A stretch of DNA of 64,000 nt, from assembly GCA_963722255.1 (NCBI GenBank), contig CAVRJO010000002.1:288001-352000 (forward strand), written 5' to 3'. The notes under the pieces were generated by a model that saw only the letters and a list, made by a program, of their open reading frames with translations, ran no database searches and was not told the DNA's origin. How positions within the stretch are numbered: position 1 is the stretch's first letter; each line of letters starts with the position of its first letter. The stretch comes from Candidatus Babeliales bacterium (GTDB lineage Bacteria; Babelota; Babeliae; Babelales; JANWKD01). Shown piece after piece: positions 297-63,085 of this stretch. Both the position numbers and the translations under genes were made by a program.

Positions 297-929
297 TTAA
301 ACATTTTTTTCCTTATCCTGTTTTTGCAGCGCATCTTTTTCATATTCCAGTAGCAAATCAAGCATTGCACATGCTCTGCGATAATCAGAAGTGTTAACAT
401 CGAATTCTTCCATTTTTTCTTTGAGAATATTTTTAGGGGTTTCAGACGGACGCACAGCTTTGTTGATATCTGGGTTGTAGACAAGCAAAACATTAAAAAC
501 ATCAATCAGCAAATGCCTTGATGCATATTGCAATAAGGTATCGGAAGTTACTGCAAAACTGCCCATTTGCAAAGACAACCCTTCTTGCATTTTCAATGTA
601 CCTTGAAGTCGAGAAGAAAAACACTCATTAACATGACTAGAATCTTCATCAAGCAACATTGCTACCATTTTAACATCATTTGCCTCAACGGCATTAGAAA
701 GAGAATGTATTTCAGGATTAACTCCTTTTTTGAGAGCAATTCTAACTAATTCTTCACAACCAGAAAGCGTCCATAAAGGAAAATTGCTTAGATCTCCGTG
801 AACTACTTTATAACTTTTAATAAATTTTTTGAATTCACTTTTAGTATATGGCGATTGGTTCATACAGAGTATTGAAAAACTGTATGTAATTAAGCTTAAT
901 GATAAAATTATTCTATTTTTGAAGAGCAT
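297..929 (-). CDS. Putative exported protein with degenerate ankyrin-like repeats
   Basis: Signal-like N-terminus (ILSLSLITYSFSILC-MNQ); motifs LSNAVEANDVKMVAMLL, TLLQYAS, NPDINK, ETP. Confidence 0.65.
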   Translation of the reverse strand: MLFKNRIILSLSLITYSFSILCMNQSPYTKSEFKKFIKSYKVVHGDLSNFPLWTLSGCEELVRIALKKGVNPEIHSLSNAVEANDVKMVAMLLDEDSSHVNECFSSRLQGTLKMQEGLSLQMGSFAVTSDTLLQYASRHLLIDVFNVLLVYNPDINKAVRPSETPKNILKEKMEEFDVNTSDYRRACAMLDLLLEYEKDALQKQDKEKNV

Positions 930-1112
930 AGCATTCCCTTTGGTAATATTGTGGATAAAATCTTGCATAAACAGTGTATTTTCTCTTTATTGAGATTGCA
1001 AACTATTTAATTGTTTTGGTGTATATACCTAACAATGTATAGTCACTGCCTATTTTAATTGGTAAACTTTACTAGAATAATAGTTATTACTTTCAATATG
1101 AGGATATTCATT

Positions 1113-1766
1113 ATGAAATTTTCACTCTTACAGATATTAATTTTTATGTTACCTTTTCAAACTTTTTCCATGAATAACGATACATTAAATATAATTCAAT
1201 TATCTACAATTGAAACAAAGGAATTGCTTTTGGGTGCATGTATTGAGAATACCGCATCTAATTTAGAACGGATATTGAATTCTGGTATTTCACCTGATAC
1301 AACTGTATATCCATTATTAGCGAAATGCTTAAGTAGCGGCAAAAAAGAACATATCAATTTGCTTTTAAACAGAGGAGCAACTGTTACCAAATCACACATT
1401 TTGAAATCAATTAATTTAAAAGATCTTGAATTATTTGGGCGCTTAATTCGCCAATGTAAAAATTTTAATTGCAATGAAAAACTATTACCCCATAATAATG
1501 AAACACTTTTACATGAAGCTAGCCGCAATGGATCTTCTGAGATAGTTGAAAAGCTCATTTCGCTCGGCGCTGATTTGGAAGCAGAAGATGATTTCGGGTA
1601 TACACCTCTCTTTACTGCCGTTGCACATAAAAATATACCCGTAATTAAAACGCTCTATACTAAGGGTGCAAATATACATAAAAAAATTAAATCAGGAGAA
1701 ACTGCTCTTTCTAGACTTCAAACAACCCTACCAGAACTTGCAGAAGAAATATTAATAGAAAAGTAA
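1113..1766 (+). CDS. Exported ankyrin repeat protein
   Basis: ETLLHEASRNG, GYTPLFTAV, GANIH; signal peptide; start placed at the ATG after AGGA. Confidence 0.85.
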   Translation: MKFSLLQILIFMLPFQTFSMNNDTLNIIQLSTIETKELLLGACIENTASNLERILNSGISPDTTVYPLLAKCLSSGKKEHINLLLNRGATVTKSHILKSINLKDLELFGRLIRQCKNFNCNEKLLPHNNETLLHEASRNGSSEIVEKLISLGADLEAEDDFGYTPLFTAVAHKNIPVIKTLYTKGANIHKKIKSGETALSRLQTTLPELAEEILIEK

Positions 1767-1789
1767 AATTCCAACAAAAAGTTATTTTT

Positions 1790-2542
1790 ATGATGAAACA
1801 TATGATACTAATTCTTCCACTAATAGTGCTCTTAAATATCAATGCATTGATTTATACCATGAATAAAGATAACCAAACTATTAATCTTACGCAGTGCAAT
1901 AATCCAGCAAAGCTCTACACAAATGCTGACGTTTTATATAATTTTTGTAAAGTTGAGAATTTAGACCTATTGAAGTATGCATTAAATCACGGACTGTCTC
2001 CCAATACTGCACTTTTTCCCTTGTTAAAAACCACACTATCCAATGGCGCAATCGAATCTGCAAAGGAATTAATAAAAAGAGGAGCTTATGTTAGTTCTTC
2101 ACATATTCGTCAATCAATATCGTTATGCGATAATGAATTATTCAATAGCATATTCTCTGCTTGTGAAGATTTTGATATTGAGGAAGAAAAAGAAGAGTAC
2201 TGGCATACCTTATTACATGAAGCAGCAGCTAAAGGAACTCCCGAAATGGTCGAAAAATTCATCGAATTAGATTTTAATATCGAAGCACAAGATCGTCGTA
2301 ATCGTACACCATTATTTGTAGCAGTGAAAGCGGGTAATATCCAAAAAATTAGAGTATTAATCGCCAAAGGCGCTAACCTTCATGCAGAAAATAAATCCGG
2401 TAAAACTATTTTAATGCTTGCCCAAAAATCACCGATAGCTGCAAAAAATATTAAGGTACGTATGCAAGGTCTATCCTATCTTAGTTGTGGTAAACAGTTG
2501 CATGTTGAAATAACTGACTATATTGCTAGTTTTTATAAGTAA
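1790..2542 (+). CDS. Exported ankyrin repeat protein, tandem paralogue of 1113..1766
   Basis: TLLHEAAAKG, RTPLFVAV, GANLH; co-linear similarity to the upstream gene; C-terminal LHVEITDYIASF. Confidence 0.85.
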   Translation: MMKHMILILPLIVLLNINALIYTMNKDNQTINLTQCNNPAKLYTNADVLYNFCKVENLDLLKYALNHGLSPNTALFPLLKTTLSNGAIESAKELIKRGAYVSSSHIRQSISLCDNELFNSIFSACEDFDIEEEKEEYWHTLLHEAAAKGTPEMVEKFIELDFNIEAQDRRNRTPLFVAVKAGNIQKIRVLIAKGANLHAENKSGKTILMLAQKSPIAAKNIKVRMQGLSYLSCGKQLHVEITDYIASFYK

Positions 2543-3743: not shown

Positions 3744-4127
3744 ATGAAGATTCATAACAAAATTCTATTAATAATACCACTAATTATTGGCTTAGGTTTA
3801 GTTGGAAATAGCAATGGGATGCGCATCAAAGAGAAATTGTCTACATGGGATCCTGCAACCCGCCATCCTTATGCTCAACCCATAACAACTGATAAAGGTA
3901 ATGGATATACATGGAAAATCCGAGAAACTTACAGAATTTGGGGCATAGGTGTATATACAGAGAAGGTGCTTTATCAACAAGTAAGAGGCAGCTATAATTA
4001 TCCCTATCCGCCAGAAGAACTAGAAAGATCTGATTTTACACTATGCAAAAAGATAAAAGCTCTTTTAGGCGGCGCTGCACTCTTAACAGCTGGTGGGCTT
4101 TGGTATTGGTGGAAACATAAAAATTAG
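3744..4127 (+). CDS. Small exported protein with C-terminal membrane anchor
   Basis: Signal peptide, C-terminal ALLGGAALLTAGGLWYWWKHKN; degraded second copy at 6966..8200. Confidence 0.75.
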   Translation: MKIHNKILLIIPLIIGLGLVGNSNGMRIKEKLSTWDPATRHPYAQPITTDKGNGYTWKIRETYRIWGIGVYTEKVLYQQVRGSYNYPYPPEELERSDFTLCKKIKALLGGAALLTAGGLWYWWKHKN

Positions 4128-6968: not shown

Positions 6969-7213
6969 TATTCAAACAAATACAAAAAGAAATTGTCTAC
7001 ATGGAATCCTGCAATCCACCATCCGTATGCTCAACCCATAAAAACTGATAAAGGTAATGGATATACATGGAAAATCCGAGAAACTTACAGAATTTGGGGC
7101 ATAGGTATTTATACAGAGAAGGTGCTTTATCAACAAATAAAAGACAGCTATAATTATCCCTATCCACCAGAAGAACTAGAAAGATCTGATTTTACACTAT
7201 GCAAAAAGATTAA

Positions 7214-8354: not shown

Positions 8355-9119
8355 ATGAATACACTAAAAAAACTACTCTACTTTTCAACCTTACTATCAA
8401 TCTCGATAGCTTCAGCTGAAATCATTACCCCAGTTGCAGAACTTAAAAACCCTCTTTGTATCTTCGATGTCGGCAGAGTTTTGGTACACCAAAGTCAACT
8501 TTCAAACACACCTGCGTACTTAAACATTATTAGCGAATCAAACAACAAAACATCACTTATAAAGCCCAGCCTTTGGTGTATGTTTAACCTTGCTAAGCTC
8601 AGAACTATAAACCTTACAGGCCCTGAAGATGCTGTTGTAGATTATATTGCACAAAAATTCCCAGCTTTGAATCAAAAAACGAAATCAAATACTACCATAG
8701 CTGAACGAGCAAAAGAAGTTTTATGCACTGCAACCCCAATCAAAGAAACACAAAAAATCGTTGCAGATCTTATTGAAAAAGGGTATCCGGTTGCTCTCGG
8801 CTCTAATAAAGGTAAAAATACCATTGCTCGTATGATTAAATCTGGAGCTCTTGCTGATCTTGATTACGCATTGATTTTCACCTGTGATTCACATGATGAT
8901 GCAGCTCAAGGAATTTTCTATAAAAAGCCCGATGCGCGTTATTACGAAAATCTTAAAAAAGATTTATATAAACAAGGCTTTGTTGATCACTCATTTATTT
9001 TTATTGATAATGATCGTGCAAATGTCGAAGCTGCATGCAAAGCAGGAATGACCGGTATTTTCTATACAACACCTGAAGAACTGATTGCTGATTTACAACA
9101 ACTTGGTATTAAATTTTAA
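8355..9119 (+). CDS. HAD-superfamily hydrolase with signal peptide
   Basis: IFDVGRVL motif I, LGSN, KKPD, FIDND; N-terminal ...SIASA signal. Confidence 0.8.
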   Translation: MNTLKKLLYFSTLLSISIASAEIITPVAELKNPLCIFDVGRVLVHQSQLSNTPAYLNIISESNNKTSLIKPSLWCMFNLAKLRTINLTGPEDAVVDYIAQKFPALNQKTKSNTTIAERAKEVLCTATPIKETQKIVADLIEKGYPVALGSNKGKNTIARMIKSGALADLDYALIFTCDSHDDAAQGIFYKKPDARYYENLKKDLYKQGFVDHSFIFIDNDRANVEAACKAGMTGIFYTTPEELIADLQQLGIKF

Positions 9120-13366: not shown

Positions 13367-13774
13367 CTAGAATCTTTTTTTAAAAAAACTATCAAGCCAA
13401 CGACTTGTTGCGTTCTCGGATCAAATGCTACATAAAGCCTTTCATGGCCAACTAGATTTACGCAATCAGAGAACTCTTTTTTGTCATTAGCACAATCCAT
13501 CTTCAAATAATAATCCGGATCTTTGCCTATTGGAGTATGAGAATATTTTTTACTATAAAAAGGCTTAAAATATTCCATAGAAACACGCCAATCTAAATCT
13601 ATTGCAGAAGGAATATCAGACAAAGTTGCCTGTCTTATAATAATTTCAGATACCTTATCTACCATAAAGGCATCATTAAAAAGGACCGAAATAAGCAGCA
13701 GGCATAAAAAGTTACACACAATGCATCTCATATCTGAAGAACACAATTAGCTCCCTTTTTTAATGCATTAATTT

Positions 13775-14823: not shown

Positions 14824-15687
14824 CTATACAATGAAATATTTATTACCCTCAAGTGCCATTATAGCATCTTTTGATTTGCACAGTTCTTCTACCGCTTTCA
14901 AACTATCTTCGGATTTTTCTGACATAAGATCACTATAATGGCGATAAAAAGGCTCTGAAAGAGGATTGGATAAACGAAGAGACCTCATTTTTTCTGCTAA
15001 AATTTCTTTACGAGCTTTAATTTTCTTATTCGTTGAACTAATTCTTAGTTCATGCGCAACCGCTTTAGTTGGTTGTATCACTATAGAATTGAGCGCAAGA
15101 TATAAAAGCAATGATGATCCGGCAAGAACCCCAAGACTTCCCGCAAGCACAGGTGAAAGAATAATACATTGAACTAAGGTCTCAGATTTGTCACAAAACA
15201 TATCACCTAAACCAAATCCAACATATGTCCCCATTGATCCAAGAAACAAATTTAATACCCCATCTGCCATTTCACATACACAAATATCATTAGGTTCTTT
15301 TGTTAGTTTTTCTCGAAGCTCAAGGAATGTTTTTAACTTTTGACAATCCACCATTAATGCATAATAAATCTTATCAGTTTCTTCATCATCACTGTCTGTG
15401 ACATACGTCCTATACAATTGCAATTGCATAATTGTCTTTTGTGATGAATATTTTTTTCTACAATTTTTTTTTAATATAGAACTATTCTGAGTATAATCAA
15501 AGGTATGTTGACCTGCTGCAAGACTTACGGTTCTTAACGATCTTGATACAACGGGTTGAGTAGATACAGCGCTCAATAGTTTAGTGCTTTGTGAGCAAAC
15601 ACTATTGCCAATCCTATGTTTCATTGCATAAAGAGGATTAAAAAGCAGAACAAAAAATAGCGGTAGTATTTTATTTACATGTTTCAT
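14824..15687 (-). CDS. Putative exported membrane protein
   Basis: Signal ...NPLYA-MKH; basic Ser/Thr-rich segment; two hydrophobic segments; coiled-coil tail. Confidence 0.7.
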   Translation of the reverse strand: MKHVNKILPLFFVLLFNPLYAMKHRIGNSVCSQSTKLLSAVSTQPVVSRSLRTVSLAAGQHTFDYTQNSSILKKNCRKKYSSQKTIMQLQLYRTYVTDSDDEETDKIYYALMVDCQKLKTFLELREKLTKEPNDICVCEMADGVLNLFLGSMGTYVGFGLGDMFCDKSETLVQCIILSPVLAGSLGVLAGSSLLLYLALNSIVIQPTKAVAHELRISSTNKKIKARKEILAEKMRSLRLSNPLSEPFYRHYSDLMSEKSEDSLKAVEELCKSKDAIMALEGNKYFIV

Positions 15688-15771: not shown

Positions 15772-16449
15772 TCAATGTTCCTTTTCTGAATCAAGCATTC
15801 TTAACTTTGCAAACAAAAGATCTTGTTCAGCTTCTTTTTGTCTCAAAATGCATGCTTGTTTTTCCTGTTCCAATTTTTCTTGCATATCTCTACGTTTTTT
15901 GTATTCTGCATTGTATTTTCCTATTAAAATATTACAACCTCTTTGGCCATCTGAATATTGACAAATACCATGTTGAATAATCCGTGTCTTTAAAATATCA
16001 ACATCAGTATCAAGTAAAAGTTTTGTCATTTCTTCAGATACTTGAACAGCCAGGCTAAAGTATTCATCAATTGGACCATCTTTAGGGTCGTGATAATCAG
16101 CGATAAACTTTCTTACAAGAGGAATATTGTTAGATCCTATTGCTTTACTAAAAAGTTTTGAAAATTCATCAGAGGTTACACCATCTTTAGATATATAATT
16201 TCCATGACCATCTCTATTACTACAAATCAACCCTTCTAAAAGTTCCATTTTTTCATGTTTTTTGCATTCAATGAGTTCTTCAATCATCTGATGACGTTTT
16301 GCTCTGGTATAACCCATTGCCAAAAATTGTGATGCAAGAGTTTTTCTACGCTCTTGAGAACATGATTCTTCCCATCTTTTTTCCATAGCTTGCATATTCA
16401 TTGAAATGACACAAAATATAAGAATCAAATAGTGCTTGTAATTGATCAT
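15772..16449 (-). CDS. Exported protein with degenerate ankyrin-like repeat and coiled coil
   Basis: Signal ...MNMQA-MEK; AIGSNNIPLVRKFI, EEMTKLLLD; AAAGGA RBS. Confidence 0.65.
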   Translation of the reverse strand: MINYKHYLILIFCVISMNMQAMEKRWEESCSQERRKTLASQFLAMGYTRAKRHQMIEELIECKKHEKMELLEGLICSNRDGHGNYISKDGVTSDEFSKLFSKAIGSNNIPLVRKFIADYHDPKDGPIDEYFSLAVQVSEEMTKLLLDTDVDILKTRIIQHGICQYSDGQRGCNILIGKYNAEYKKRRDMQEKLEQEKQACILRQKEAEQDLLFAKLRMLDSEKEH

Positions 16450-23581: not shown

Positions 23582-23908
23582 ATGAAAAGGATCCCATTAG
23601 CCATTTTTTTATTCATGACAATGCAATCTTTAAGCGCAATGGAAAAGTATATACATCACCAACCTCATGCATGTACACCTTCAAAGCACACAAAAGAAGC
23701 CCAATCGTTCACAGAAGACAACCCCGGATCTTGCTGTTTTTGTGGCTTGGTAACCTGTACCTGCTTTACGGGTGTGGGAACCTGTTTATCATTAACCCAT
23801 TCAGCCCCAATGGTTACCCTAGCAGCATGGACATGCTGTTTTGGCACCTCATTGTATGTTCTTAAAGAAATCGCACTAGCATACTGGGAAGATAAAAAGG
23901 ATCAATAA
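23582..23908 (+). CDS. Small exported Cys-rich membrane protein
   Basis: Signal ...SLSA-MEK; two hydrophobic segments with CC/CxC clusters. Confidence 0.65.
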   Translation: MKRIPLAIFLFMTMQSLSAMEKYIHHQPHACTPSKHTKEAQSFTEDNPGSCCFCGLVTCTCFTGVGTCLSLTHSAPMVTLAAWTCCFGTSLYVLKEIALAYWEDKKDQ

Positions 23909-26734: not shown

Positions 26735-27778
26735 ATGAAAAGAGTAATGACATCCCTCATACTGCTTCTATTGAGTGCCGGGTCACAAGATCTTTATGCA
26801 ATGAAACATAATAAGAAAAAACATCGTAAAAAGCCTCAGCACGTCGGCGCTCAAAATAACTCAGAAATAAAAGGTAAAAACGCCCGCAAAAAAACAACTC
26901 TCATAGGTTTTATACAATCAGGTGATATTAAAATTCCTGAAACTTCTATTAGCGAACAACCTGTTGAAGTTCTTGAACCTTTATTCAAGGCATTACATTC
27001 TTCTGTGACTGTTGCTACTCCAAAAAAAGAAGCCCAAACAACCTATGCTCATACTAGAGCAATTCTTGATGAATTATCCAAAAAACGTGGTGACAAAAAA
27101 AAGGCAAAAGAAGGTCTCCAGGGTTTTGCTGATGATTTTAGCGATGATGAAAAAAATATGAAAGCACTGTGGCAATTTGATTCAAAGGAAGATATTGCGG
27201 ATCCAACAAAAATATATTTGGGAATAATGGCGGGTTCTACTTCTCCATGGAAAAATCATGTATACGAATATATGAAAAATAAAAACCAACTGTGTGAAAA
27301 ATATGATACACAGATTGTTGCAAGAGAAAGCACTCTTAAAGATCTTAATGATCAAATAGTTTCGCTTCAAAAAAAAGCACAAGAAGAACATGAACACATT
27401 CAAGCACTCACATTAACCAAAGAACACCATGAAACAAAGCTTAAATCTGCTGAAATCTATTCTGCTGACCTCGTTGATTACCTTACTGGGCAAATAGAAG
27501 AAACAGTCGGGCTTATCGAAAATTACGATAGTGATTTAGATAAATTAGACCTTCAATCATCTCAATTGAGAAAAAACAAAAATACGGATGTAAAAAATTT
27601 TAATGAACAAACTTCTAAAAATAATTTAGAAAAAGGAAATATACTTACAAAGAAAAAAGAAGCTGAAACAATTTTAAAACAATTAAATGTAGCTTTAGAG
27701 CATGTTAACCAAAATCTTCCAAAAGCACGTGATGGCGGTTCTTTTGGACGTCGCTATGTCTGGGGCAAAAGCTTCTAA
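26735..27778 (+). CDS. Exported coiled-coil protein with basic N-terminal cluster
   Basis: AGGAG RBS; signal ...DLYA-MKHNKKKHRKK; heptad-rich C-terminal half. Confidence 0.75.
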   Translation: MKRVMTSLILLLLSAGSQDLYAMKHNKKKHRKKPQHVGAQNNSEIKGKNARKKTTLIGFIQSGDIKIPETSISEQPVEVLEPLFKALHSSVTVATPKKEAQTTYAHTRAILDELSKKRGDKKKAKEGLQGFADDFSDDEKNMKALWQFDSKEDIADPTKIYLGIMAGSTSPWKNHVYEYMKNKNQLCEKYDTQIVARESTLKDLNDQIVSLQKKAQEEHEHIQALTLTKEHHETKLKSAEIYSADLVDYLTGQIEETVGLIENYDSDLDKLDLQSSQLRKNKNTDVKNFNEQTSKNNLEKGNILTKKKEAETILKQLNVALEHVNQNLPKARDGGSFGRRYVWGKSF

Positions 27779-33365: not shown

Positions 33366-33866
33366 ATGCAAAAAAATAAATTCATACTTTTTTTCACAAT
33401 CATATTTTTATCTACATTATCGGTTCGATCTATGGAACAACCCGAGTTGCCAAGTGAGCTCATTGCTCATATTCTAATCACTAGTCAGGATTCTCTTCCA
33501 TTGGCAATAAAAGTATCAATTGCTTTTAGTCAATGTAGCCATGAATCACGAGACATTGTTCATAGTGAGCATTTTACCTCTCAAGTTGCATCAACCTACA
33601 ATGCTGAGAAATCTTTGATTGCCCTTTTACTAGGAAATTATGGATTACCAGAATATCAAGAAAAAAAGAAGTTGCTCGATACCTATAAAGAAGCAAAAGA
33701 TACAACTGAACTTATCAACAATGATAATTGTCTTTTTGAAACAGATGAAGAACATTGGTTTTTTAAAAATAATGAAGTTAGATTGATTTTAACAATGTAT
33801 ACAAATCAACCTAACTATCTTTATCTAAAATCAAATATGTATCTTTATCTTTATTTAGTCTCTTGA
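33366..33866 (+). pseudogene. Truncated paralogue of 32423..33304
   Basis: MEQPELPSELIAHIL, QDSL and YNAEKSLIALLLGN align; ankyrin half is absent and the frame ends in TATCTT repeats overlapping the convergent gene. Confidence 0.6.
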
Positions 33867-34707: not shown

Positions 34708-35703
34708 TCAATGTTCAAAAGTATGTTCTACTGATTCATTGAAAAAATTATCATGTATACTAAGCGATGAAACATCAATCAAATGATATTTATGCTTTTT
34801 TAATAAGTTTGCAATATCTAAATATCTTAGACTTTTTGCATGCTTTAATGGCTTTCTTCCACAATATCTCTTATCTTTATCAGCACCATAATTAAGCAAT
34901 AGTTGAACAGTGGCAAGGTCGCCATTCTGTATAGCGCTTATTAATGGTCTTGGTTCATCTATATCCTCATAAAAGGGACCTCTAATTTTACTATAATCAT
35001 CAACCGCAGCACCATGCTCCAAAAGAAGTTTAACAAGAGCATAATATCCCCCTTTTGTTGCCGCATCCAAAGGACGAACATCGTAAGGATCTTCAACGTT
35101 CATTGGAGCTCCAGCGTCAAGAAGCCATTGTACCATTTCTATATGACCTCGTTTGCTGGCTAACGTCAAAAGATTATTTGTATCACGATTTCTTCCTTGA
35201 TAATAGAGATATTGGTCAACAAAGAATTTTTTCACATCTTTTGCAGTATCCAAAAAAAACTTCACGATGTTTTTATGACCATTAAATATCGCGTATCCTA
35301 TTGAACTATGACCAAACAGATCTTTTTGGTATACATCTGAACCTCTAGCAATAAGAAAAGTAACCATTTCTAAATTCCCACCTTCAGCAGCAACCATCAA
35401 AGCTGTTTTACCCCAATACGATCTTTGATCAATTTCAACACCTTGATGTATTATAAATTCGATTATTTCAGAAAATCCCATTTTTGCTGCTTTATGAATT
35501 GGATAATGTCCCTTTTTAGCCTCTTTGAGAAGCGTAGGAGAATGCCATACTAAAGTTTTTAGCTCTTCACAATTTCTCTGTTTAATTGCATGAAAAACAT
35601 CATTGACAGTTCTTCCTTTTTTAATGGTACACGACTCTTCCATTGCATGAGATAAAACAATACCATTTGCCATCATTAGTAAAGCAAGACATCTATACAT
35701 CAA
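34708..35703 (-). CDS. Exported ankyrin repeat protein
   Basis: PIHKAA, GKTALMVAA, LLTLASKRG, RPLDAA, RPLISA; AGGAG RBS; signal ...LSHA-MEE. Confidence 0.92.
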   Translation of the reverse strand: MMYRCLALLMMANGIVLSHAMEESCTIKKGRTVNDVFHAIKQRNCEELKTLVWHSPTLLKEAKKGHYPIHKAAKMGFSEIIEFIIHQGVEIDQRSYWGKTALMVAAEGGNLEMVTFLIARGSDVYQKDLFGHSSIGYAIFNGHKNIVKFFLDTAKDVKKFFVDQYLYYQGRNRDTNNLLTLASKRGHIEMVQWLLDAGAPMNVEDPYDVRPLDAATKGGYYALVKLLLEHGAAVDDYSKIRGPFYEDIDEPRPLISAIQNGDLATVQLLLNYGADKDKRYCGRKPLKHAKSLRYLDIANLLKKHKYHLIDVSSLSIHDNFFNESVEHTFEH

Positions 35704-37639: not shown

Positions 37640-39124
37640 ATGAAAATTGTAACTATACTTATAAGTATATCCTTGTTTTCTTGTACAATTTTGTATGCCC
37701 CCGATAAACAAGAAAAACAGAAGAATGCTCAACCGGTCTCAAGCAATGAATTTGAACAAATTATTTTTCAATGGACAAAATCTTTTGCCGAGGTGGTTCA
37801 TATAATACATAAAAAATATCATGAACAAATAAACCCCGAGAAAGCGATGATTAATGCAATAAATGCTTTTGTCTCCACGTTAGATCCACACTCAAGCTTT
37901 ATGGATCCAAAATCCTATAAAGAAATTATTGAAACAACACAAGGAGAATTTTTTGGTATTGGTGTGATTATCGATAATATGAAAGAAGCTGAACAAGAAT
38001 TTCTTAAAATAATTGATACCATTCCTTCAGGTCCGGCTGATAAAGCGGGAATTAGAGCAGATGACATGATCGTTCAGGTCAATGATGATTCTTTAAAAGG
38101 ACTTACGGTCGAAGAAATTATTGCTAAGTTAAAAGGAAAACGCAATACACCGGTAACCATAAAAATCAAAAGGGGAAATAATCCCGAACTCCTCTCCTTT
38201 ACCGTTAACCGAGACATTGTCAAAGAACAAGATGCTCTTTGCTACTATTTCAAAGACAATAGTATCTATTATTTGTCCTTACGATTATTTACAGAAAACT
38301 CGGTTAAACAGCTTGAACAACTGTTAAAAAAGTGCCAATCACAACATTCTAAAGGACTTATTCTAGATCTTAGGAATAACTCTGGAGGGCTCCTTAATGC
38401 TGTAATTGATATTGCAGGCCTTTTTTTACAAAAAAATAGCGTCGTTGTTATCACACAAGAACGCGATAAGCGTATTGAATACAAGACAACAAGGGACCCA
38501 ATCGATATTGGCGACATACCTGTTTTTATAATCATTAATAACTTAACGGCGTCCGCAGCAGAAATATTAGCAGGTTGCTTACAGATTCATTCCGATACAA
38601 CAAAAACTAGCCAAAAAAATAATAAAAACCCAATGGTCTTTCTTATAGGAAGTAAAACATTTGGAAAAGGTTCTGTTCAAGAAGTAATACCCATTCCAAA
38701 TGATTGCGCAGCAAAAGTTACAACAGCGTTATATTATTTGCCTAACAATAGTTCTATTCAAAGTATTGGTATTCAGCCGGACTTTGCCATTGAGCAACGG
38801 TTTGCACCGACAAAAGAGATGCAATGGTTCAATAAATTTTTTGGCTATGAAAGCAGTTTGAAAAATGCCATAAAAAACAAAAACAGCGCTGAAGCAAATG
38901 AGACGAAAGCCAAAGATGAAAAAGAAAAAACATGGCAAGAAAAGAAACAAGAACAAATTGGCAGTGATTATATTATTTTAAGTACACTACGTTTAATTGA
39001 AATGTTTACCATGACAAAAAAAGCTTTCCCTCAACTAGTTTCAACACGAAAAGATAGTATTGAATTTTTAAAAAAAAATTATGTAGCAAGCGATACAATT
39101 GCTATGGAAGAAATTACTATTTAA
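37640..39124 (+). CDS. ctpA: S41 C-terminal processing peptidase with PDZ domain
   Basis: LDPHS, GIGV, LDLRNNSGG, TASAAE, TFGKGSVQ. Confidence 0.92.
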   Translation: MKIVTILISISLFSCTILYAPDKQEKQKNAQPVSSNEFEQIIFQWTKSFAEVVHIIHKKYHEQINPEKAMINAINAFVSTLDPHSSFMDPKSYKEIIETTQGEFFGIGVIIDNMKEAEQEFLKIIDTIPSGPADKAGIRADDMIVQVNDDSLKGLTVEEIIAKLKGKRNTPVTIKIKRGNNPELLSFTVNRDIVKEQDALCYYFKDNSIYYLSLRLFTENSVKQLEQLLKKCQSQHSKGLILDLRNNSGGLLNAVIDIAGLFLQKNSVVVITQERDKRIEYKTTRDPIDIGDIPVFIIINNLTASAAEILAGCLQIHSDTTKTSQKNNKNPMVFLIGSKTFGKGSVQEVIPIPNDCAAKVTTALYYLPNNSSIQSIGIQPDFAIEQRFAPTKEMQWFNKFFGYESSLKNAIKNKNSAEANETKAKDEKEKTWQEKKQEQIGSDYIILSTLRLIEMFTMTKKAFPQLVSTRKDSIEFLKKNYVASDTIAMEEITI

Positions 39125-50971: not shown

Positions 50972-52075
50972 CTATACCAATTCTTCTAAGCTTCTTGGTT
51001 TCATTTTTTCTATTCTCTCTTGAGCCAACCTAATCATTTTCTCCTTATTTGATTTAAAACAGGTAAAAGTGTAGTTTGTCATACACATTCCATCAAATAA
51101 GCAACAAGGTAGATATATGGGTATACTCGAGAAAGAAATTACCCCTCCTAGCCATTTAGTAAAATCTTCAGTGGTATCTATACTCGAAGTACCTGGCGGT
51201 CCATAAATATACTCAGCAATAGGCCTTGAGTAAAAAAAGAGAAGCAATCCAATGACATTCATACTTAAAGGAACAATATATTTTGGAGACGTTGCAATAC
51301 AGCATGTCATAGCCCCTTTTTTATTCAGCTTTTTTTTCAATGTAACGTGAATGCAGCTTAAAAATAACCTTCGGGTTTTCAAATAAATCTTCGTAATGCG
51401 ATTTGAAGGAATATTCATTGAATGATATAGATAATCAATCTGATTCTGCGTATTAGCGCTATATTCTTCAAGCGATTCTCTAAAATCGTCATCATTCATA
51501 TTCAGTAGATTTTGTACTTTCTCCAAATCAGCATAACTATCTGCACATTTGGTTGCATATTTTTTGGATCGGGTCAAAAAATTTAAAGCTTCAGTAATTA
51601 AACATGAACATTCATCATAAGCTTCTTTATCAAAATAATGCCCTTTAGAACAACAACAATTATTTTTAACAATTTTCATCGGATTTCTTTTGATTTTTTG
51701 AGCTTCTTCACTAAGATAACGATGATGCATAAAAATAATTTTCTTCTCAACTGAGCCAGGCCAAACAAAATAAGGAGCTAATGCATATAAGGTTCCAATA
51801 TTTACATAATCACAAATATGTTCTTTAAGTTCTTCAGGTAGTTGATTAAATGAAGGTAAAAATAGTTCCTCTACTTGCATTTCACTACTATTTTGCAAGG
51901 GTAGACTACTATATTCACCTACTTCGCTTCCGTCAAGCAGCCTCGTAGTTTCCATTTGATATGATTCATTATTCACGCTTCCTATTTGAGGGGCATATTC
52001 AAAAGCTTGATCTTCCATTGCATAATTAAAAAAAATAACCTGTAGCATTAACAACATCATACAGAAAGTTCTCAT
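50972..52075 (-). CDS. Exported F-box-like protein with C-terminal TM pair
   Basis: Signal ...FNYA-MED; FNQLPEELKEHICDYV; two hydrophobic segments flanked by CC. Confidence 0.75.
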   Translation of the reverse strand: MRTFCMMLLMLQVIFFNYAMEDQAFEYAPQIGSVNNESYQMETTRLLDGSEVGEYSSLPLQNSSEMQVEELFLPSFNQLPEELKEHICDYVNIGTLYALAPYFVWPGSVEKKIIFMHHRYLSEEAQKIKRNPMKIVKNNCCCSKGHYFDKEAYDECSCLITEALNFLTRSKKYATKCADSYADLEKVQNLLNMNDDDFRESLEEYSANTQNQIDYLYHSMNIPSNRITKIYLKTRRLFLSCIHVTLKKKLNKKGAMTCCIATSPKYIVPLSMNVIGLLLFFYSRPIAEYIYGPPGTSSIDTTEDFTKWLGGVISFSSIPIYLPCCLFDGMCMTNYTFTCFKSNKEKMIRLAQERIEKMKPRSLEELV

Positions 52076-53690: not shown

Positions 53691-54397
53691 ATTTTTTTTT
53701 AATTTCGTGTCTTGACAAAGGGGTTCACTATACGGTTCATAAAATTTAAAGCTTGATTTATCAAACTTGAATATTCATTATAAGCCTGTTTATTCAGAAA
53801 ACGGTCTTTGTTACCACATGACTCAATTTCAATTACTCTCATTGGATCTTCTTTAATTTTCTTGGCTTGACTGGCAAGATACCAATAATGAACATGTTGA
53901 ATTTTTTTTGCAATTGAGCCAGGCCAAACAAAATAAGGAGCCAATGCATATAAGGTTCCAAGATTAACATTATCACAAATTTGTTCTTTAACTTCTTCAG
54001 GTAGTTGATTAAAAAAATCTAGAAAGTATGGCTTCAAACTATTATTATTTTGCATCGGAAAATCATTATAGTCCTGATTTGGTTCATCAGTAAGTAACTT
54101 CGTACTTTCTGGAGCATCTAATTCATGTTGTACGTTTCCTTGTTGATCGATATATTCAAAGACTTGGTCTTCCATTGCGTAACTAAGATAAACTATATGG
54201 ATCATTAATAAAGGCACAAAAATTAAATGCATATTTTTCCTTTTATCATAAAGATTTTTTGTTAACTCTATCTGATTCATCGCAATTTTCTATACCTTGT
54301 ATTTATTTTTATAAATTTATTTCAAATATTAAAATTATTGATTTTTGATTGCTTTATTTTATAAACTTTGAATAAGATAATCGGAAAGGAAACTCAT

Positions 54398-55686: not shown

Positions 55687-56631
55687 ATGTACAAACAATT
55701 TCTCTTAATAACGAGTATGTTCGCCTTCTTCTCCACTACATCATTTGGTATGGAAAATGACAAATCATCCATTATCTTATTCTGTACCCCATTAATTACT
55801 CCATTGGTCATGGAAAATCCTGACCCAAACAAAAAAATTGTCAAAGCAATCGACGAAAAAGATAATAAATCATTACGAAAAGAACTTTCCAATAACACAA
55901 ATCCTAATGTTCAATTAAATAAAGAATCATTGCTTACTAGAGCAATTCAAGAAAGAAATCCTAAAGCTATAAAATTGTTGCTCAATGCCGGCGCCAATTG
56001 CACAGCATGCGATGACAATAAAAATGGTCTTTTTTGTTTTTTCATGAAATCTTTTGGAGTACATCTAAACAATAAAAAAGAAATCGCAATCCTCAAAGCA
56101 ATTGTCGATGCTGGATGTAATGTTAATACACCTCTAATAAGTAGAGTAAATGTAATGCCTTTACATAAAGCTTCCATTGACCATAAAACTCATATTATGC
56201 AACAACTTATTGAACTCAGAGCACAAGTAAATGCGCAGACTCAAAACTTATGTACACCTCTCCATCTTTGTATATCTCATGCACCATATAATGATATAGA
56301 TGGAGTACAACTTCTTATTAAAGCAGGAGCTGAAGTTAATATTCAAGATTCTAAGGGGAAAACTCCCTTACGTTATGCAGTAAACTTAAATGCACCTTAC
56401 ATCGTGAAAACACTTCTTTCTGTTCCGGGCATTAAGACATCAATTCTGAGCAAAGATGGTAAATCAGATTTAGCCATTGCTAAAAAAAAAGGACATAAAA
56501 CAATTGGCCGTTTGCTCATTCAACATTTGGGAGTCTATTCTGCTCAGGGACGCATTTCACGCCAAGGATTTGCGCAAATCTTGCCTCAAGAAATCGCAGA
56601 GCATATTGCAGCATTTTTATTTAGAGAATAA
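55687..56631 (+). CDS. Exported ankyrin repeat protein with C-terminal F-box-like motif (array copy 1)
   Basis: MPLHKA, TPLHL, GKTPLRYA; tail ILPQEIAEHIAAFL. Confidence 0.9.
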   Translation: MYKQFLLITSMFAFFSTTSFGMENDKSSIILFCTPLITPLVMENPDPNKKIVKAIDEKDNKSLRKELSNNTNPNVQLNKESLLTRAIQERNPKAIKLLLNAGANCTACDDNKNGLFCFFMKSFGVHLNNKKEIAILKAIVDAGCNVNTPLISRVNVMPLHKASIDHKTHIMQQLIELRAQVNAQTQNLCTPLHLCISHAPYNDIDGVQLLIKAGAEVNIQDSKGKTPLRYAVNLNAPYIVKTLLSVPGIKTSILSKDGKSDLAIAKKKGHKTIGRLLIQHLGVYSAQGRISRQGFAQILPQEIAEHIAAFLFRE

Positions 56632-56665
56632 ATAATCTATGGATATACCGAAAAAATTGTTAACT

Positions 56666-57553
56666 ATGCAAAAACGATTACTCTCAACAAATAGCATATT
56701 CGTCCTCTTTTTCACAGCTGCATCATTTGGTATGGAAAATAAACAAGCCATTAATAATCTTTTCTCAGCAATCGTAACTTATAATCACAAATTATTAAGA
56801 GAAGAACTTTCAAATAGTACCAACCAAAATTCTCAGCTAGATCGAGATCTTCCTTTGGACCTAGCAATTTGCTATAGAAATTATAAAGCAGTAAAATTAT
56901 TACTTAAAGCTGGTGCCAATTGCACAGCATGCTATAACAATAAAAATGGTCTCTTTTATTTTTTCATGGACTCTTTTGTCATAGATATAAGCAATAAAAA
57001 GGAAATCGCAATCCTTAAAGCCATTGTCGATGCTGGATGTAATGTTAATACACCTCTAATAAGTAGAATAAAGGTAATGCCTTTACATAAAGCTTCCATT
57101 GACAATAAGACTCATATTATGCAACAACTTATTGAACAGGGGGCTCAAATAAATGCAAAAACTTTATACAAAGCTACACCTCTCCATCTTTGTATACTTC
57201 ATGCACCAGATAATGATATCGATGGAGTACAACTTCTTATTAAAGCGGGAGCTGAAGTTAATATTAAAGCTTCTAAGGGAGAAACTCCCTTACGTTATGC
57301 AGTAAATTTAAATACACCTTACATCGTGAAAACACTTCTTTCTGTTCCGGGCATTAATACATTAATTCTGAGCAAAGATGGCAAATCAGATCTAGCGGTC
57401 GCCAAAGAAAAAGGTCACCAAGAAATTGGCCGTTTGCTTATTCAACATTTGGGAGTCTATTCTGCTCAGGGACGCATTTCACGCCAAGGATTTGCGCAAA
57501 TCTTGCCACAAGAAATTGCAGAGCATATTGCAACATTTTTATTTAGAGAATAA
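56666..57553 (+). CDS. Exported ankyrin repeat protein (array copy 2)
   Basis: Near-identical to copy 3; alternative start at 56639. Confidence 0.9.
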   Translation: MQKRLLSTNSIFVLFFTAASFGMENKQAINNLFSAIVTYNHKLLREELSNSTNQNSQLDRDLPLDLAICYRNYKAVKLLLKAGANCTACYNNKNGLFYFFMDSFVIDISNKKEIAILKAIVDAGCNVNTPLISRIKVMPLHKASIDNKTHIMQQLIEQGAQINAKTLYKATPLHLCILHAPDNDIDGVQLLIKAGAEVNIKASKGETPLRYAVNLNTPYIVKTLLSVPGINTLILSKDGKSDLAVAKEKGHQEIGRLLIQHLGVYSAQGRISRQGFAQILPQEIAEHIATFLFRE

Positions 57554-57587
57554 ATTATCTATGGATATACCGAAAAAATTGTTAACT

Positions 57588-58475
57588 ATGCAAAAACGAT
57601 TACTCTCAACAAATAGCATATTCGTCCTCTTTTTCACTGCTGCATCCTTTGGAATGGAAAATGGTCAATCAGTTGAAGATCTTTTCAGGGCAATAAACAA
57701 CTGTAATCATAAATTATTACGAGAAGAACTTTCAAATAGTACCAACCAAAATTCTCAGCTAGATCGAGATCTTCCTTTGGACCTAGCAATTTGCTATAGA
57801 AATTATAAAGCAGTAAAATTATTACTTAAAGCTGGTGCCAATTGCACAGCATGCTATAACAATAAAAATGGTCTCTTTTATTTTTTCATGGACTCTTTTG
57901 TCATAGATATAAGCAATAAAAAGGAAATCGCAATCCTTAAAGCCATTGTCGATGCTGGATGTAATGTTAATACACCTCTAATAAGTAGAATAAAGGTAAT
58001 GCCTTTACATAAAGCTTCCATTGACAATAAGACTCATATTATGCAACAACTTATTGAACAGGGGGCTCAAATAAATGCAAAAACTTTATACAAAGCTACA
58101 CCTCTCCATCTTTGTATACTTCATGCACCAGATAATGATATCGATGGAGTACAACTTCTTATTAAAGCGGGAGCTGAAGTTAATATTAAAGCTTCTAAGG
58201 GAGAAACTCCCTTACGTTATGCGGTAAACTTAAATGCGCCTTACATCGTGAAAACACTTCTTTCTGTTCCGGGCATTAAGACATCAATTCTGAGCAAAGA
58301 TGGCAAATCAGATCTAGCGGTCGCCAAAGAAAAAGGTCACCAAGAAATTGGCCGTTTGCTTATTCAACATTTGGGCGTCTATTCTGCTCAAGGACGTATC
58401 TCACGGCGAGGTTTCGCCCAAATCTTGCCACAAGAGATTGCTCAACACATCGCAACATTTTTATTTAGAAAATAA
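57588..58475 (+). CDS. Exported ankyrin repeat protein (array copy 3)
   Basis: 922-bp period with copy 2; alternative start at 57561. Confidence 0.9.
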   Translation: MQKRLLSTNSIFVLFFTAASFGMENGQSVEDLFRAINNCNHKLLREELSNSTNQNSQLDRDLPLDLAICYRNYKAVKLLLKAGANCTACYNNKNGLFYFFMDSFVIDISNKKEIAILKAIVDAGCNVNTPLISRIKVMPLHKASIDNKTHIMQQLIEQGAQINAKTLYKATPLHLCILHAPDNDIDGVQLLIKAGAEVNIKASKGETPLRYAVNLNAPYIVKTLLSVPGIKTSILSKDGKSDLAVAKEKGHQEIGRLLIQHLGVYSAQGRISRRGFAQILPQEIAQHIATFLFRK

Positions 58476-60418: not shown

Positions 60419-60694
60419 ATGGCAAGAAGATATAAAAAACATAGTAGTTCATTCAAAGCAAAAGTAGCTATAGATGCTATTAGAGAACAAAAAACTTTAA
60501 ACGAACTAAGTCAGGAACATAGCATTGCTCCTGCACAAATCTCTATCTGGAAAAGACATGCTGAAGAAAATATGAGCAACCTTTTTGAGGGGAAACAAGA
60601 AAAGGACCAACAAGAGGAAATTGATAGGCTTTATCGAGTAATTGGTCAAATAACGGCAGAGCGTGATTTTTTAGAACGCTCGCTCAATCGATAG
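60419..60694 (+). CDS. IS3 transposase OrfA
   Basis: Identical protein to copy 1. Confidence 0.9.
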   Translation: MARRYKKHSSSFKAKVAIDAIREQKTLNELSQEHSIAPAQISIWKRHAEENMSNLFEGKQEKDQQEEIDRLYRVIGQITAERDFLERSLNR

Positions 60695-60714
60695 ATTTAA
60701 AGCAGCGTAAGGAA

Positions 60715-61596
60715 ATGGTTGAGTGTGTAAATGAAGCAATAGACTTTAAAAGAAAATGTGAACTTTTAGATGTATCGAGAGGATCGATGTATTACAAGCC
60801 TAAACCTCAAAAAAATAATGATGCAATTATTATGAATGAGCTACGTGAAATTTATCAAGAAACGCCTTCCTATGGCTATCGGCGCATGACAGTAGCTTTA
60901 AGAGAAAATGGTTTTTTGGTTAATCATAAAAAAGTTTTTATGTTGCTTAAGATAGCGGGCATCCAGGCCATTTACCCTCGCAAAAAAACAACCATACGAA
61001 ATCAGGGGCACAAAGTATTTCCTTATTTATTGCGTGGGTTGCTTATTAATCGACCAAATCAGGTTTGGCAAGTAGATATAACCTATATAAAAATACGGGG
61101 TGGTTTTGTATATTTGGTTTGCTTAATTGATGTTTTTAGTCGAAAAATCATGGGATGGAAATTGTCAATTTCTCTTGATACAGCGTTATGCATAGAGGCG
61201 TTCAATAGTGCTTTGCAACATGGTATTCCAGAAATTGTTAATAGCGACCAAGGATGTCAATTTACCAGTGCTCTGTGGGTTGAATTAGTGCAACAATATG
61301 GAATTCAAATAAGTATGGATGGTAAAGGAAGATGGGCAGATAATGTTTATATTGAGAGGCTTTGGCGTACGATAAAATATGAGATGATACATTTGCATAG
61401 CTTTGATACAGTTCAACAGGTAAGAGATGCGCTTGCAAGTTACATTGTTTTTTATAATACACGACGTTATCATTCAAAGCTTAATTATCACGCACCAGAC
61501 GCTATTTTCGCAAAAAAAATTATTCCATCTAAAAAAGAATTATTCGAAAGTTTTATAGCTTCACAAATTTATAAACTTGGAGCCGCTATGATTTAA
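60715..61596 (+). CDS. IS3 transposase OrfB
   Basis: Identical protein to copy 1. Confidence 0.93.
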   Translation: MVECVNEAIDFKRKCELLDVSRGSMYYKPKPQKNNDAIIMNELREIYQETPSYGYRRMTVALRENGFLVNHKKVFMLLKIAGIQAIYPRKKTTIRNQGHKVFPYLLRGLLINRPNQVWQVDITYIKIRGGFVYLVCLIDVFSRKIMGWKLSISLDTALCIEAFNSALQHGIPEIVNSDQGCQFTSALWVELVQQYGIQISMDGKGRWADNVYIERLWRTIKYEMIHLHSFDTVQQVRDALASYIVFYNTRRYHSKLNYHAPDAIFAKKIIPSKKELFESFIASQIYKLGAAMI

Positions 61597-62143
61597 ATTT
61601 TTTTTTAATTTCGTGTCTTGACAAAGGGGTTCACTATACCCCCAAATTTCCTGCCAAATCAATAATATATTTAATCCGCTGATCGCACAATTTATTTATA
61701 TTCATATTATTTCTGACACACTCAAATAATTTAGTAAAATTTTCTATCGTATAATAACTATCCGTTTTTAATTCTATAACTTCACCAGCAACATTCATTT
61801 GATCTTGTATTACTTGGAATTTCTCAAGAAGCTTTCCTGAAACCACTAGACGTCCGTCACAAAGTTCGATCATTTCAAATTTTGGCCTATTTTGAACATT
61901 CTGCTTTTCCATACACAATGCATTAGAGAAAAAAAATAGTATGCACAATGCAACAACCATTATTCACCTTACTAAAATAATTTTTAAAAAAAAAACTAAT
62001 ATTTACCGTAAATTATAAAGATAATTTATAATATTGAAATAATTTAAAGATTTGCACTAAAAATTAAAACCATTGAATTTTAAACAAATAGTATGCATCA
62101 TGGAATAGTTCCCTAGTGACCCTAGACTTTGAAATTGAAAAAC

Positions 62144-63085
62144 ATGAACTTAATAAATATCTTTATATCATTCATTTTTTTAGTACATTCATCATCATTT
62201 ACAATGCAAAAAATATTTGGCCAGAAAAAGAAACAAGCGCAACAAACGAAAACTATTGGCACAAAGAAATACCTAAATGAACAACTATTTAAAAGCGTTC
62301 AATCAAGACAACGTGTGACATTAAAAAATGCTTTAAAATCTGGCGCAGATCCTAATTGTTATGATTCCAATAAACAAACACCATTAGTGCATGCTGTAAA
62401 AAAAATTGATTTTAAGTCGATAAAACTTCTACTGGATGCAGGAGCTCTTGCTACGATGGATTTACCGAGAAATATATCACTTGCACACATTCTGACCAAA
62501 GGTGAAATCAATGAAAAATCACTCAAAATATTAAAACTGCTTATTATAAATAAAGCACCTTTAAGCATACAAGCCGATACGGGCTATACGCCATTGCATT
62601 ATGCAGTTACCAATGATTTATCCACGTTTGAAAACAAACTAGCTTGCATCAATCTATTATTAGACCACAACGTCTCATGCAATGAACCTACTAATACAAA
62701 TTTGACACCCCTTCACCTTTCAATTTCGATTGCTCACAATCAAAAACTGGCTCACTACTTTGTAAACTTGAAAAATATTAAAATCAATGCAAAATCTGAT
62801 GAACGACAAACACCATTAACCTATGCTATACAATATGATCTGATTTCGATCATAATCTCATTACTAACTCAACCAAAAATAAAAACAAAAATAATTGATA
62901 GATACAACAAATCTGCATTAGAGCATGCAAAACAAAATGGCAAGAAAAAAATAGGCAGATTATTGCTTGCTCATTTAGGATTTTATTCCTATCAAGGTCT
63001 GATCGCGCAGAAAGGATTAGTTCAAATTTTTCCTAAACCAGTTGCAAGAACTATAGCAGCTGAATATATAAAAAATTGCTTTTAA
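62144..63085 (+). CDS. Exported ankyrin repeat protein, distant paralogue of the 55.7-58.5 kb array
   Basis: QTPLVHA, GYTPLHYA, LTPLHL; tail IGRLLLAHLGFYSYQGLIAQKGLVQIFPKPVARTIA matches the array tail. Confidence 0.9.
   Translation: MNLINIFISFIFLVHSSSFTMQKIFGQKKKQAQQTKTIGTKKYLNEQLFKSVQSRQRVTLKNALKSGADPNCYDSNKQTPLVHAVKKIDFKSIKLLLDAGALATMDLPRNISLAHILTKGEINEKSLKILKLLIINKAPLSIQADTGYTPLHYAVTNDLSTFENKLACINLLLDHNVSCNEPTNTNLTPLHLSISIAHNQKLAHYFVNLKNIKINAKSDERQTPLTYAIQYDLISIIISLLTQPKIKTKIIDRYNKSALEHAKQNGKKKIGRLLLAHLGFYSYQGLIAQKGLVQIFPKPVARTIAAEYIKNCF

Follow-up and report, generated by a model that had tools for sequence, protein, structure and literature searches.

Genes of the window and the residue after their leaders

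The 64 kb of DNA analysed here (the window: positions 288,001 to 352,000 of contig CAVRJO010000002.1, assembly GCA_963722255.1, from a Candidatus Babeliales bacterium) belong to a two-contig genome of 1.62 Mb that is 93% complete, has a G+C content of 34%, uses the standard genetic code and possesses a 16S tail with a normal anti-Shine-Dalgarno sequence. The lineage assignment agrees with HflX, whose nearest named relatives, at 60–65% identity, bear the labels "Candidatus Babeliales bacterium", "Candidatus Dependentiae bacterium" and "candidate division TM6". Pfam searches with 70 window proteins recovered housekeeping functions (ATP synthase, UvrD, HflX, Pth, Skp, CtpA and MurB) and several transposases, as well as many ankyrin-repeat genes and proteins without a family. 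Nineteen of the window genes share the feature that is the subject of this study: translated from its start, each encodes a hydrophobic N-terminal leader of 16–27 residues followed directly by Met (Table 1). The leaders consist of a Lys/Arg-containing start, an uncharged hydrophobic stretch and a small residue, after which the Met stands. The first-pass annotation of the window had named about 19 such genes, and translation confirms all of them; the positions that it listed are those of start codons rather than of the Met, and one of these, 35703, is a TTG lying one codon before the ATG at 35700. As contrast cases it had chosen a Skp/OmpH chaperone, a CtpA-type peptidase and an exported HAD-like hydrolase, and these do have ordinary sites without Met.

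The same annotation held that every ankyrin, F-box and leucine-rich repeat (LRR) gene bears the signature. For ankyrin genes this is true within the window, where seven Pfam-supported genes and one with a weak match all have it, and fails genome-wide, where the count is 25 of 32. Genes 32423 and 33366 resemble F-box genes by eye, and Pfam finds no F-box in either, even at E ≤ 1. The LRR gene 59448–60239 has no leader of its own; the leader and its ALC/MEK junction (a slash here marks the putative end of a leader) are carried by the proximal part of the gene, 61634–61960, which a copy of an IS3-type insertion sequence at 60327–61639 has split from the distal LRR part. This element, a transposase pair, is present in two identical 1313-bp copies; the other, at 52421–53733, truncates gene 53699–54232, whose reading frame runs into it. 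The three ankyrin genes at 55687–58475 form a tandem triplet with a period of 922 nucleotides and 86% identity between copies, with SFG/MEN in all. When orphan gene 50972–52075 was used to search the public protein collection, the only match was the gene's own product.

Table 1. Leaders with their following Met codons in the window, and three exported proteins with ordinary sites. Spans cover leader plus Met codon, or the whole gene for the contrast cases; the +1-blind site is described in the text.
Span	Strand	Leader (residues)	Met codon	Gene	Junction	Remarks
861..929	-	22	861-863	297-929, orphan	...FSILC/MNQ	no Pfam family
1113..1172	+	19	1170-1172	1113-1766, ankyrin	...QTFS/MNN	+1-blind site agrees
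1790..1861	+	23	1859-1861	1790-2542, ankyrin	...LIYT/MNK	
3744..3821	+	25	3819-3821	3744-4127, orphan	...NSNG/MRI	
13663..13746	-	27	13663-13665	13357-13746	...NDAF/MVD	weak case: TTG start, Phe at -1, no -3/-1 site
15622..15687	-	21	15622-15624	14824-15687	...PLYA/MKH	+1-blind site agrees
16384..16449	-	21	16384-16386	15772-16449	...NMQA/MEK	
23582..23641	+	19	23639-23641	23582-23908	...SLSA/MEK	+1-blind site agrees
26735..26803	+	22	26801-26803	26735-27778	...DLYA/MKH	
32423..32479	+	18	32477-32479	32423-33304	...PLYT/MEP	weak ankyrin match
33366..33434	+	22	33432-33434	33366-33866	...SVRS/MEQ	
35641..35700	-	19	35641-35643	34708-35700, ankyrin	...LSHA/MEE	public call is the same 330-residue product
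52016..52075	-	19	52016-52018	50972-52075, orphan	...FNYA/MED	public call is the same 367-residue product
54173..54232	-	19	54173-54175	53699-54232	...LSYA/MED	paralogue of 50972-52075
55687..55752	+	21	55750-55752	55687-56631, ankyrin	...TSFG/MEN	triplet copy 1
56666..56734	+	22	56732-56734	56666-57553, ankyrin	...ASFG/MEN	triplet copy 2
57588..57656	+	22	57654-57656	57588-58475, ankyrin	...ASFG/MEN	triplet copy 3
61910..61960	-	16	61910-61912	61634-61960	...NALC/MEK	proximal LRR-gene fragment
62144..62206	+	20	62204-62206	62144-63085, ankyrin	...SSFT/MQK	
31075..31689	+			Skp/OmpH chaperone	...IVKA/DDK	contrast: conventional site, no Met
37640..39124	+			CtpA-type S41 peptidase	...ILYA/PDK	contrast: no Met
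8355..9119	+			exported HAD-like hydrolase	...IASA/EII	contrast: no Met

Enrichment of Met behind leaders across the genome

Genome-wide gene calls, obtained by a simple scheme that combines open reading frames, codon usage and Shine-Dalgarno pairing, gave 1661 genes. A leader filter, defined as an uncharged window of nine residues near the N-terminus with a mean Kyte-Doolittle hydropathy of at least 2.0, flags 726 of their proteins (44%) and leaves 935 as leaderless. At positions 19–25 of the 726 leader-bearing proteins, Met accounts for 300 of 5082 residues (5.9%), compared with 1.6% at positions 40–100 of the same proteins, 1.8% at positions 19–25 of the 935 leaderless proteins and 1.7% overall; the binomial probability of the excess is 5e-72. 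Counted from the end of the hydrophobic-core window, Met peaks 6–7 residues downstream, with 61–63 occurrences per position, and reaches 38–45 at distances of 4–5 and 8 residues. The pair [AGSCT]-Met located 2–10 residues after the core is about 20-fold more frequent than composition predicts, the best other residue in place of Met attaining 5.4-fold. The Met-after-leader signature is real and far wider than the 19 cases in the window.

To count the genes concerned, the configuration of a leader followed by Met was defined from any candidate start, with Shine-Dalgarno scores ignored, and is present in 337 of the 1661 genes. Further hydrophobic segments divide these carriers into 248 with a soluble mature part and 89 that are more membrane-like. 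Their uncharged hydrophobic core holds by construction, being the selection filter, whereas the narrow distribution of leader length, mostly 18–23 residues, is independent support. The junction follows the consensus S-L-[FY]-[ASG]/M-[E>N,Q,D]. In a logo anchored on the Met alone (319 proteins), position -3 is occupied by Leu, Ile, Val, Ser or Ala (81% when Thr is included), position -2 by Phe or Tyr, and position -1 by Ala, Ser, Gly, Cys or Thr (76%); at +2, Glu is found in 31%, 4.9-fold over background, followed by Asn and Gln. Glu rises to 41% at +2 of the soluble carriers. The polar or acidic residue that had been noted after the Met in the window is likewise general: Asp, Glu, Asn or Gln follows in 163 of the 248 (66%, background 21%), and a hydrophobic residue (Leu, Ile, Phe, Tyr or Trp) in 20 (8%, background 28%).

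Proteins that carry the Met

A whole-genome search with Ank_2 returned 63 matches, 60 of which map to 32 called genes. Thirty of these 32 ankyrin genes encode a leader, and 25 have the leader followed by Met (23 flagged by the filter and two plain by eye, just under its hydrophobicity threshold); the remainder comprise five genes with conventional sites and two without a leader. Carriers are poorly conserved, with a BLAST match in the 400-kb sample of a genome of the same genus for 13% of them, compared with 25% of other exported soluble proteins and 27% of leaderless ones. Among exported soluble proteins other than ankyrins, the Met class makes up 8 of the 58 that have matches in two or more of the four other-family samples, some of these eight being false positives of the filter, and 190 of the 394 without matches in those samples (odds ratio 0.17, p = 3e-7). 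The first-pass annotation had expected Met at +1 to be less frequent in housekeeping exported proteins than in effector-like ones and so to set the two apart; the conservation figures favour the former expectation, and together with the ankyrin count they support the latter.

Conserved exported proteins have ordinary ends such as ...VFA/QSI, ...SKA/AES, ...SNA/QFR and ...VDA/QPE. Pfam assigned five of eight such proteins to thioredoxin, FKBP isomerase, C39-like peptidase, pyridine-nucleotide oxidoreductase and S9-like hydrolase families, the other three having no family. Among the exported proteins that can be named, Met is absent from thioredoxin, FKBP, the C39-like peptidase, Skp, CtpA and one secretin. 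Outside the window, g0525, g0540 and g0708 encode three exported proteins of the J-domain (DnaJ-like) type, each with the leader followed by Met. Overall, the Met looks like a mark of a fast-evolving, host-directed secretome that takes in the majority of the ankyrin proteins, one LRR protein and roughly 200 orphan families.

Distribution across Babeliales

The share of leader-bearing proteins with [AGSCT]-Met was measured with one pipeline in seven Babeliales genomes, comprising this one and six relatives from the same order, and in an AT-rich gammaproteobacterial metagenome-assembled genome that served as an outgroup control, its locus having been found by a search for the ATP synthase beta subunit. 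The share is 35% in this genome (G000; Glu, Asn and Gln after the Met), 36% in the relative of the same genus (G001; Glu) and 35% in that of the same family (G003; Glu and Asp). Three genomes of other families show 27% (G020; Asp, Gln and Glu), 27% (G022; Asp) and 25% (G014; Glu and Asp). The share is 14% in another family, represented by G057, which has no Met peak (2.3% at positions 19–25, background 2.0%), and 9% in the control (G058), where only 17% of genes have a leader. The rule is thereby present in six of the seven sampled Babeliales genomes, or five of the six relatives, and the Met signal was not found in the family of G057 or in the gammaproteobacterial control. In G020 and G022, Asp rather than Glu is the commonest residue after the post-leader Met.

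Ankyrin proteins from elsewhere offer a second comparison. Among 119 public ankyrin homologues of gene 34708–35700, which span a wide range of taxa, a leader is present in 72 and a leader followed by Met in four, one of these four being the closest relative at 58% identity. Taken with the genome shares, these counts indicate that the rule belongs to part of the Babeliales and is a property neither of ankyrin proteins in general nor of AT-richness. DNA patterns such as TWYGSNATGGAN were also tried as a score for the rule across genomes and were rejected, as they did not separate genomes known to be positive from those known to be negative.

Type of signal peptide and predicted cleavage site

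The first-pass annotation had taken the leaders to be signal peptides, and their anatomy is that of Sec signals cleaved by signal peptidase I. Residues 2–8 contain a mean of 1.63 Lys/Arg in the Met class and 1.68 in other leaders, and Lys takes position 2 in 41% of the leader-bearing proteins. The c-region of the Met class is distinctive, with Leu at -3 in 31% (8% in other leaders) and Phe or Tyr at -2 in 34% (18%). Cleavage sites were predicted with a hand-made rule that combines positions -3 and -1 with polarity terms and is blind to the residue at +1. Of 242 soluble carriers, 128 have their predicted site directly before the Met and the other 114 elsewhere, which supports, though it does not prove, the earlier assumption of cleavage before the Met; in the window the rule agrees with the Met site in 9 of the 19 cases. 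No residue is predicted at +1 more often than Met, which occupies 26% of all 545 sites and 33% among the 128 with the best scores. The rule is crude enough to predict Leu, Phe and Ile at +1 as well, which are surely errors. A position-weight predictor trained on positions -8 to -1 only had been tried beforehand and was replaced, being too weak and often setting sites inside the hydrophobic core.

Other known types of N-terminal signal do not match the carriers. A lipobox-like string is present in 10 of the 248, an RRxFL-like string of the twin-arginine (Tat) type in two, and any RR within the first 12 residues in four. Type IV prepilins have a short charged leader, their Gly/Phe or Gly/Met site ahead of the hydrophobic stretch, and Glu at +5, and here the Met follows that stretch; one true pilin-like protein among the carriers is a filter false positive. 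Gln, the +1 residue of the Bacteroidetes Q-rule discussed below, is predicted at 6–9% of sites, compared with the 26–33% for Met. The genome encodes two full-length signal peptidase I paralogues above the TIGR02227 cut-off that are 65% identical to each other. A special signal peptidase was briefly a candidate, since the match of one paralogue was split in two and seemed to track the rule, and was rejected because both are full-length, 65% identical and have the same motifs. As judged from leader anatomy and predicted sites, signal peptidase I most likely cuts right before the Met.

Alternative origins of the Met

Shine-Dalgarno pairing bears on which of the two ATGs is used. Upstream starts of the 337 configurations have a mean pairing energy of -4.63 kcal/mol, with 53% at -5 or better, similar to the mean of -4.25 for unambiguous starts. 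The internal Met codons average -1.79 kcal/mol (10% at -5 or better), which is weaker than ATGs deep within genes (-2.59 kcal/mol, 15%), and the upstream site pairs better than the internal Met in 270 of the 337. Normal pairing upstream combined with sub-random pairing at the Met implies that the leader is translated and that the Met is not an ordinary second start, an option that the first-pass annotation had raised and that is now disfavoured. Products starting at the upstream ATG are also listed in the public protein collection for two window genes (34708–35700 and 50972–52075). It is very improbable that both ATGs initiate and that each gene yields an exported form and a leaderless cytoplasmic form: the internal ATG is in frame and at a fixed place, and start scoring favoured it in 24 of the 337, but the pairing figures run the other way and there is no evident use for cytoplasmic copies of some 250 host-directed proteins. 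Still less credit, indeed hardly any, can be given to an annotation artefact in which the Met is the true start and the leader is untranslated AT-rich sequence that reads as hydrophobic. AT-rich sequence does translate into Phe, Ile, Leu, Lys and Asn, and upstream pairing is weak for the window leaders at 1790, 3744, 33366, 56666 and 62144; such an artefact would nevertheless have to coexist with a tight peak of leader length, Lys/Arg near the leader start, small residues at -1 and -3, normal pairing at the upstream starts, and an AT-rich gammaproteobacterial control that lacks the pattern in the identical pipeline. Inheritance within a few large paralogous families is equally close to being dismissed. 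Paralogous carriers do exist in the ankyrin triplet, the pair 50972/53699 and a cluster of 20 ankyrin members, the largest found; however, the 248 soluble mature parts fall into 199 single-linkage BLAST clusters (E < 1e-5), 177 of them singletons, and paralogy is thus not the explanation. Leader-plus-upstream DNA is similar in 22 pairs of carriers, in 14 of which the mature parts are similar too, leaving eight pairs alike in the leader alone. With 199 clusters and so few leader-only pairs, neither a family effect nor a circulating cassette is apparent, which disfavours the earlier suggestion that signal cassettes were grafted in front of complete ATG-starting genes.

A more serious alternative, although in our judgement an unlikely one, is that the Met is a fossil start. 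Complete ATG-starting genes, often young orphans or of host origin, would have gained a leader by fusion or by extension into the AT-rich sequence upstream, and the Met would be a neutral remnant that has been lost from old, conserved genes. The concentration of the Met class in non-conserved proteins and its depletion in conserved ones agree with this, as do the leaderless, 81%-identical copy of gene 3744 at 6993–7250 and a secreted J-domain protein (...LNA/MEYKEDYY) whose mature part begins almost where cytosolic DnaJ starts, the Met lying within two residues of that start. A neutral relic, however, would be expected to keep its purine-rich ribosome site, 6–10 nucleotides upstream, for as long as the ATG; only the ATG is kept, behind pairing weaker than that of random internal ATGs. 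Carriers of this genome retain the leader and Met in 24 of 32 best matches in G003, a member of another genus, at a median identity of 27%; the 24 represent 12 distinct subject proteins with unrelated leader sequences, mostly reading /ME, and the best match of non-carrier exported queries is a carrier in 11 of 72. Leaderless proteins, orphans included, prefer Lys, Asn or Ala at position 2 and have Glu there in only 6–8%, compared with 41% after the Met of soluble carriers. Small residues at -1 and -3 stand exactly in front of the Met, genes do not have leader DNA cassettes in common, and the signal is missing from one Babeliales family that is just as AT-rich and has no fewer leaders, all of which a fossil start leaves unaccounted for. 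Retention at about 27% identity, Glu at +2 and the missing ribosome-site relic together argue that the Met is kept at the protein level. We conclude from these comparisons that a protein-level reason probably maintains the Met, even if some leaders may have been added before complete genes.

A putative N-terminal label on exported proteins

The reading that we prefer to these alternatives, and regard as probable, is that the leaders are translated Sec-type signal peptides, that signal peptidase I most likely cuts before a Met selected at the protein level, and that the rule is specific both to a lineage and to a class of proteins. Cleavage would leave a mature N-terminus of Met-Glu, or of Met followed by Asp, Asn or Gln, while conserved envelope and periplasmic proteins would keep ordinary +1 residues, and the exposed Met-acidic end could then act as an N-terminal label. 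Such a label might be read by the bacterium itself, in a second export step across the outer membrane, or it might provide a host-like, N-degron-safe end once the protein is inside the host cell. Eukaryotic NatB acetylates N-termini beginning with Met-Asp, Met-Glu, Met-Asn or Met-Gln, which is the form of the putative mature end in the 163 carriers counted above; an N-terminal Met is stabilising before a non-hydrophobic residue and forms a degron before a hydrophobic one. Acidic residues after a cleavage site are generally good for export. Because the +2 set is NatB-like, but acidic residues favour export and Ala, Ser and Gly are equally N-degron-safe, a bacterial sorting tag and a host-like stable end seem about equally likely readings of the label.

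Several points weigh against the preferred reading. The +1-blind rule misses the Met site in the 114 carriers mentioned above, and the placing of cleavage before the Met rests on hand-made heuristics and our own gene calls. The hydrophobicity filter is loose, flagging 44% of genes, and false carriers include a pilin and inner-membrane proteins. Relatives are kin, each represented by one 400-kb stretch. In the same-genus sample only 14 of 33 best matches keep the configuration, many of the non-keeping ones being partial, domain-level matches such as those to DnaJ. Alignments (MAFFT) of the N-termini of reciprocal best matches (27 same-genus and 14 same-family pairs) were too noisy per site, many of the pairs being false carriers, and retention of the configuration was used in their place. 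The J-domain protein described above fits grafting. As Ala, Ser and Gly are equally stabilising, N-degron avoidance leaves the choice of Met unexplained, and type II secretion is not known to use a linear N-terminal tag.

A wider proposal, which we advance only tentatively and with less than even confidence, is an "M-rule" shared by several families of Babeliales. Signal peptidase I would expose Met-Glu/Asp on host-directed proteins numbering some 250, or about 15% of the proteome, and this end would be an address code that separates effectors from the envelope. Its reader would be either a secretin-based step or the host, where the end would pass for a native N-terminus of the NatB type that is safe from the N-degron pathway. 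The genome encodes a pair of secretins, their genes about 2 kb from each other (G000:C1:854049-861459), and pilin-like proteins occur among the filter false positives. At 93% completeness, the genome yielded neither a VirB4-type type IV gene nor one of the TolC/OEP type, and hence no known effector injection system. Given two secretins and neither of these types, the route that is available is export by Sec and then passage by a secretin-type or vesicle step, and the gene content fits a route of Sec plus a second step.

Relation to known systems

A short linear motif that sorts proteins after cleavage has a precedent in the lipoprotein export signal of Bacteroidetes, where lipoproteins are directed to the cell surface by an acidic motif that adjoins the +1 Cys. 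Both systems would act on an exported subset bound across the outer membrane; that signal depends on Cys at +1 and on signal peptidase II, whereas only 10 of the 248 carriers are lipobox-like. Listeriolysin O is reportedly a case in which the N-terminal residue governs the fate of a bacterial protein in the host cytosol. The N-end rule in the host cytosol, the topic of PMC2518864, resembles the host-side reading of the label, in that an exposed mature N-terminal residue can set the stability of a secreted bacterial protein; the known cases concern single proteins, and the pattern here is proteome-wide and seen in sequence.

The closest analogue is the Q-rule of Bacteroidetes, in which Gln occupies +1 of most signal peptidase I substrates and is cyclised to pyroglutamate (PMC5837995, PMC10653852). 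As described there, the Q-rule is likewise a lineage-specific, proteome-wide preference at +1 with a presumed role after cleavage. It differs in its residue (Gln), in covering most substrates (PMC5837995, PMC10653852), in having a known modifying enzyme, glutaminyl cyclase, and in belonging to another phylum, whereas the residue here is Met, largely confined to an effector-like class and joined to an acidic or amide partner. A term search of the text of PMC5837995 returned none of "methionine", "TM6" and "Dependentiae".

Signal peptides on Dependentiae proteins have been reported before. The article on Chromulinavorax destructans gives signal sequences in 44% of coding sequences and in 78% of ankyrin proteins (PMC6561590), and that on Babela massiliensis gives a signal peptide in 79 of 126 ankyrin proteins (PMC4378268). 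These signal-peptide ankyrin proteins come from the same phylum, and the reported figures match the 44% of leader-bearing genes and the 30 of 32 ankyrin leaders found here. In the main article texts, the word "methionine" occurs in neither PMC6561590 nor PMC4378268, and "cleavage" does not occur in PMC4378268; within those texts, neither paper describes the +1 Met, the Glu/Asp partner or the envelope contrast set out above. More generally, no description of a +1 Met in Dependentiae or Babeliales was found in the main texts of open-access papers and preprints. It is already in print that signal peptides are borne by about half of all proteins in Dependentiae and by the majority of the ankyrin ones. 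What appears not to have been described is the +1 Met rule, in which the Met after the leader has the look of an address label for the host-directed secretome.

Dependentiae are widespread and mostly uncultured parasites of protists with many ankyrin and orphan proteins. By telling the envelope set from the host-directed set, a mark in the sequence would provide an effector predictor for a phylum-level lineage, and, if the rule is true, genome sequences alone would suffice to list the effectors of uncultured Dependentiae. The mark would also suggest a step of sorting or stability that is open to study by a single-residue change. After the Q-rule, it would be the second example of a lineage that has altered the residue directly behind its signal peptides, here in a class-specific manner.

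Gene remnants and transposases in the window

Other features of the window concern copies, remnants and broken genes. The leaderless copy of gene 3744–4127 at 6993–7250 is a TTG-start open frame, and it adjoins an IS4/5-type transposase gene at 7310–8122. On the minus strand, at 20281–23491, two genes that are normally essential are in pieces: trmD, in fusion with a Methyltrn_RNA_4 domain, is spread across three frames, and ffh stops after its GTPase domain, with pieces of the M-domain continuing in other frames. The fragmentation of the two genes reflects either real decay or indel errors in the assembly; such errors could shift the starts of a few genes and would leave the statistics unchanged. 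With leaders on 44% of the proteins of this genome, a broken SRP54 would be remarkable.

Acetyltransferase genes of the GNAT type with hydrophobic N-termini occur at 13775–14641 and as fragments at 13357–13746, the weak case of Table 1, and 11271–11558. This group (11271–14641) is interrupted by IS630-type and IS5-type transposase genes at 11549–13348. Exported acetyltransferases would be of interest beside Met-acidic N-termini.

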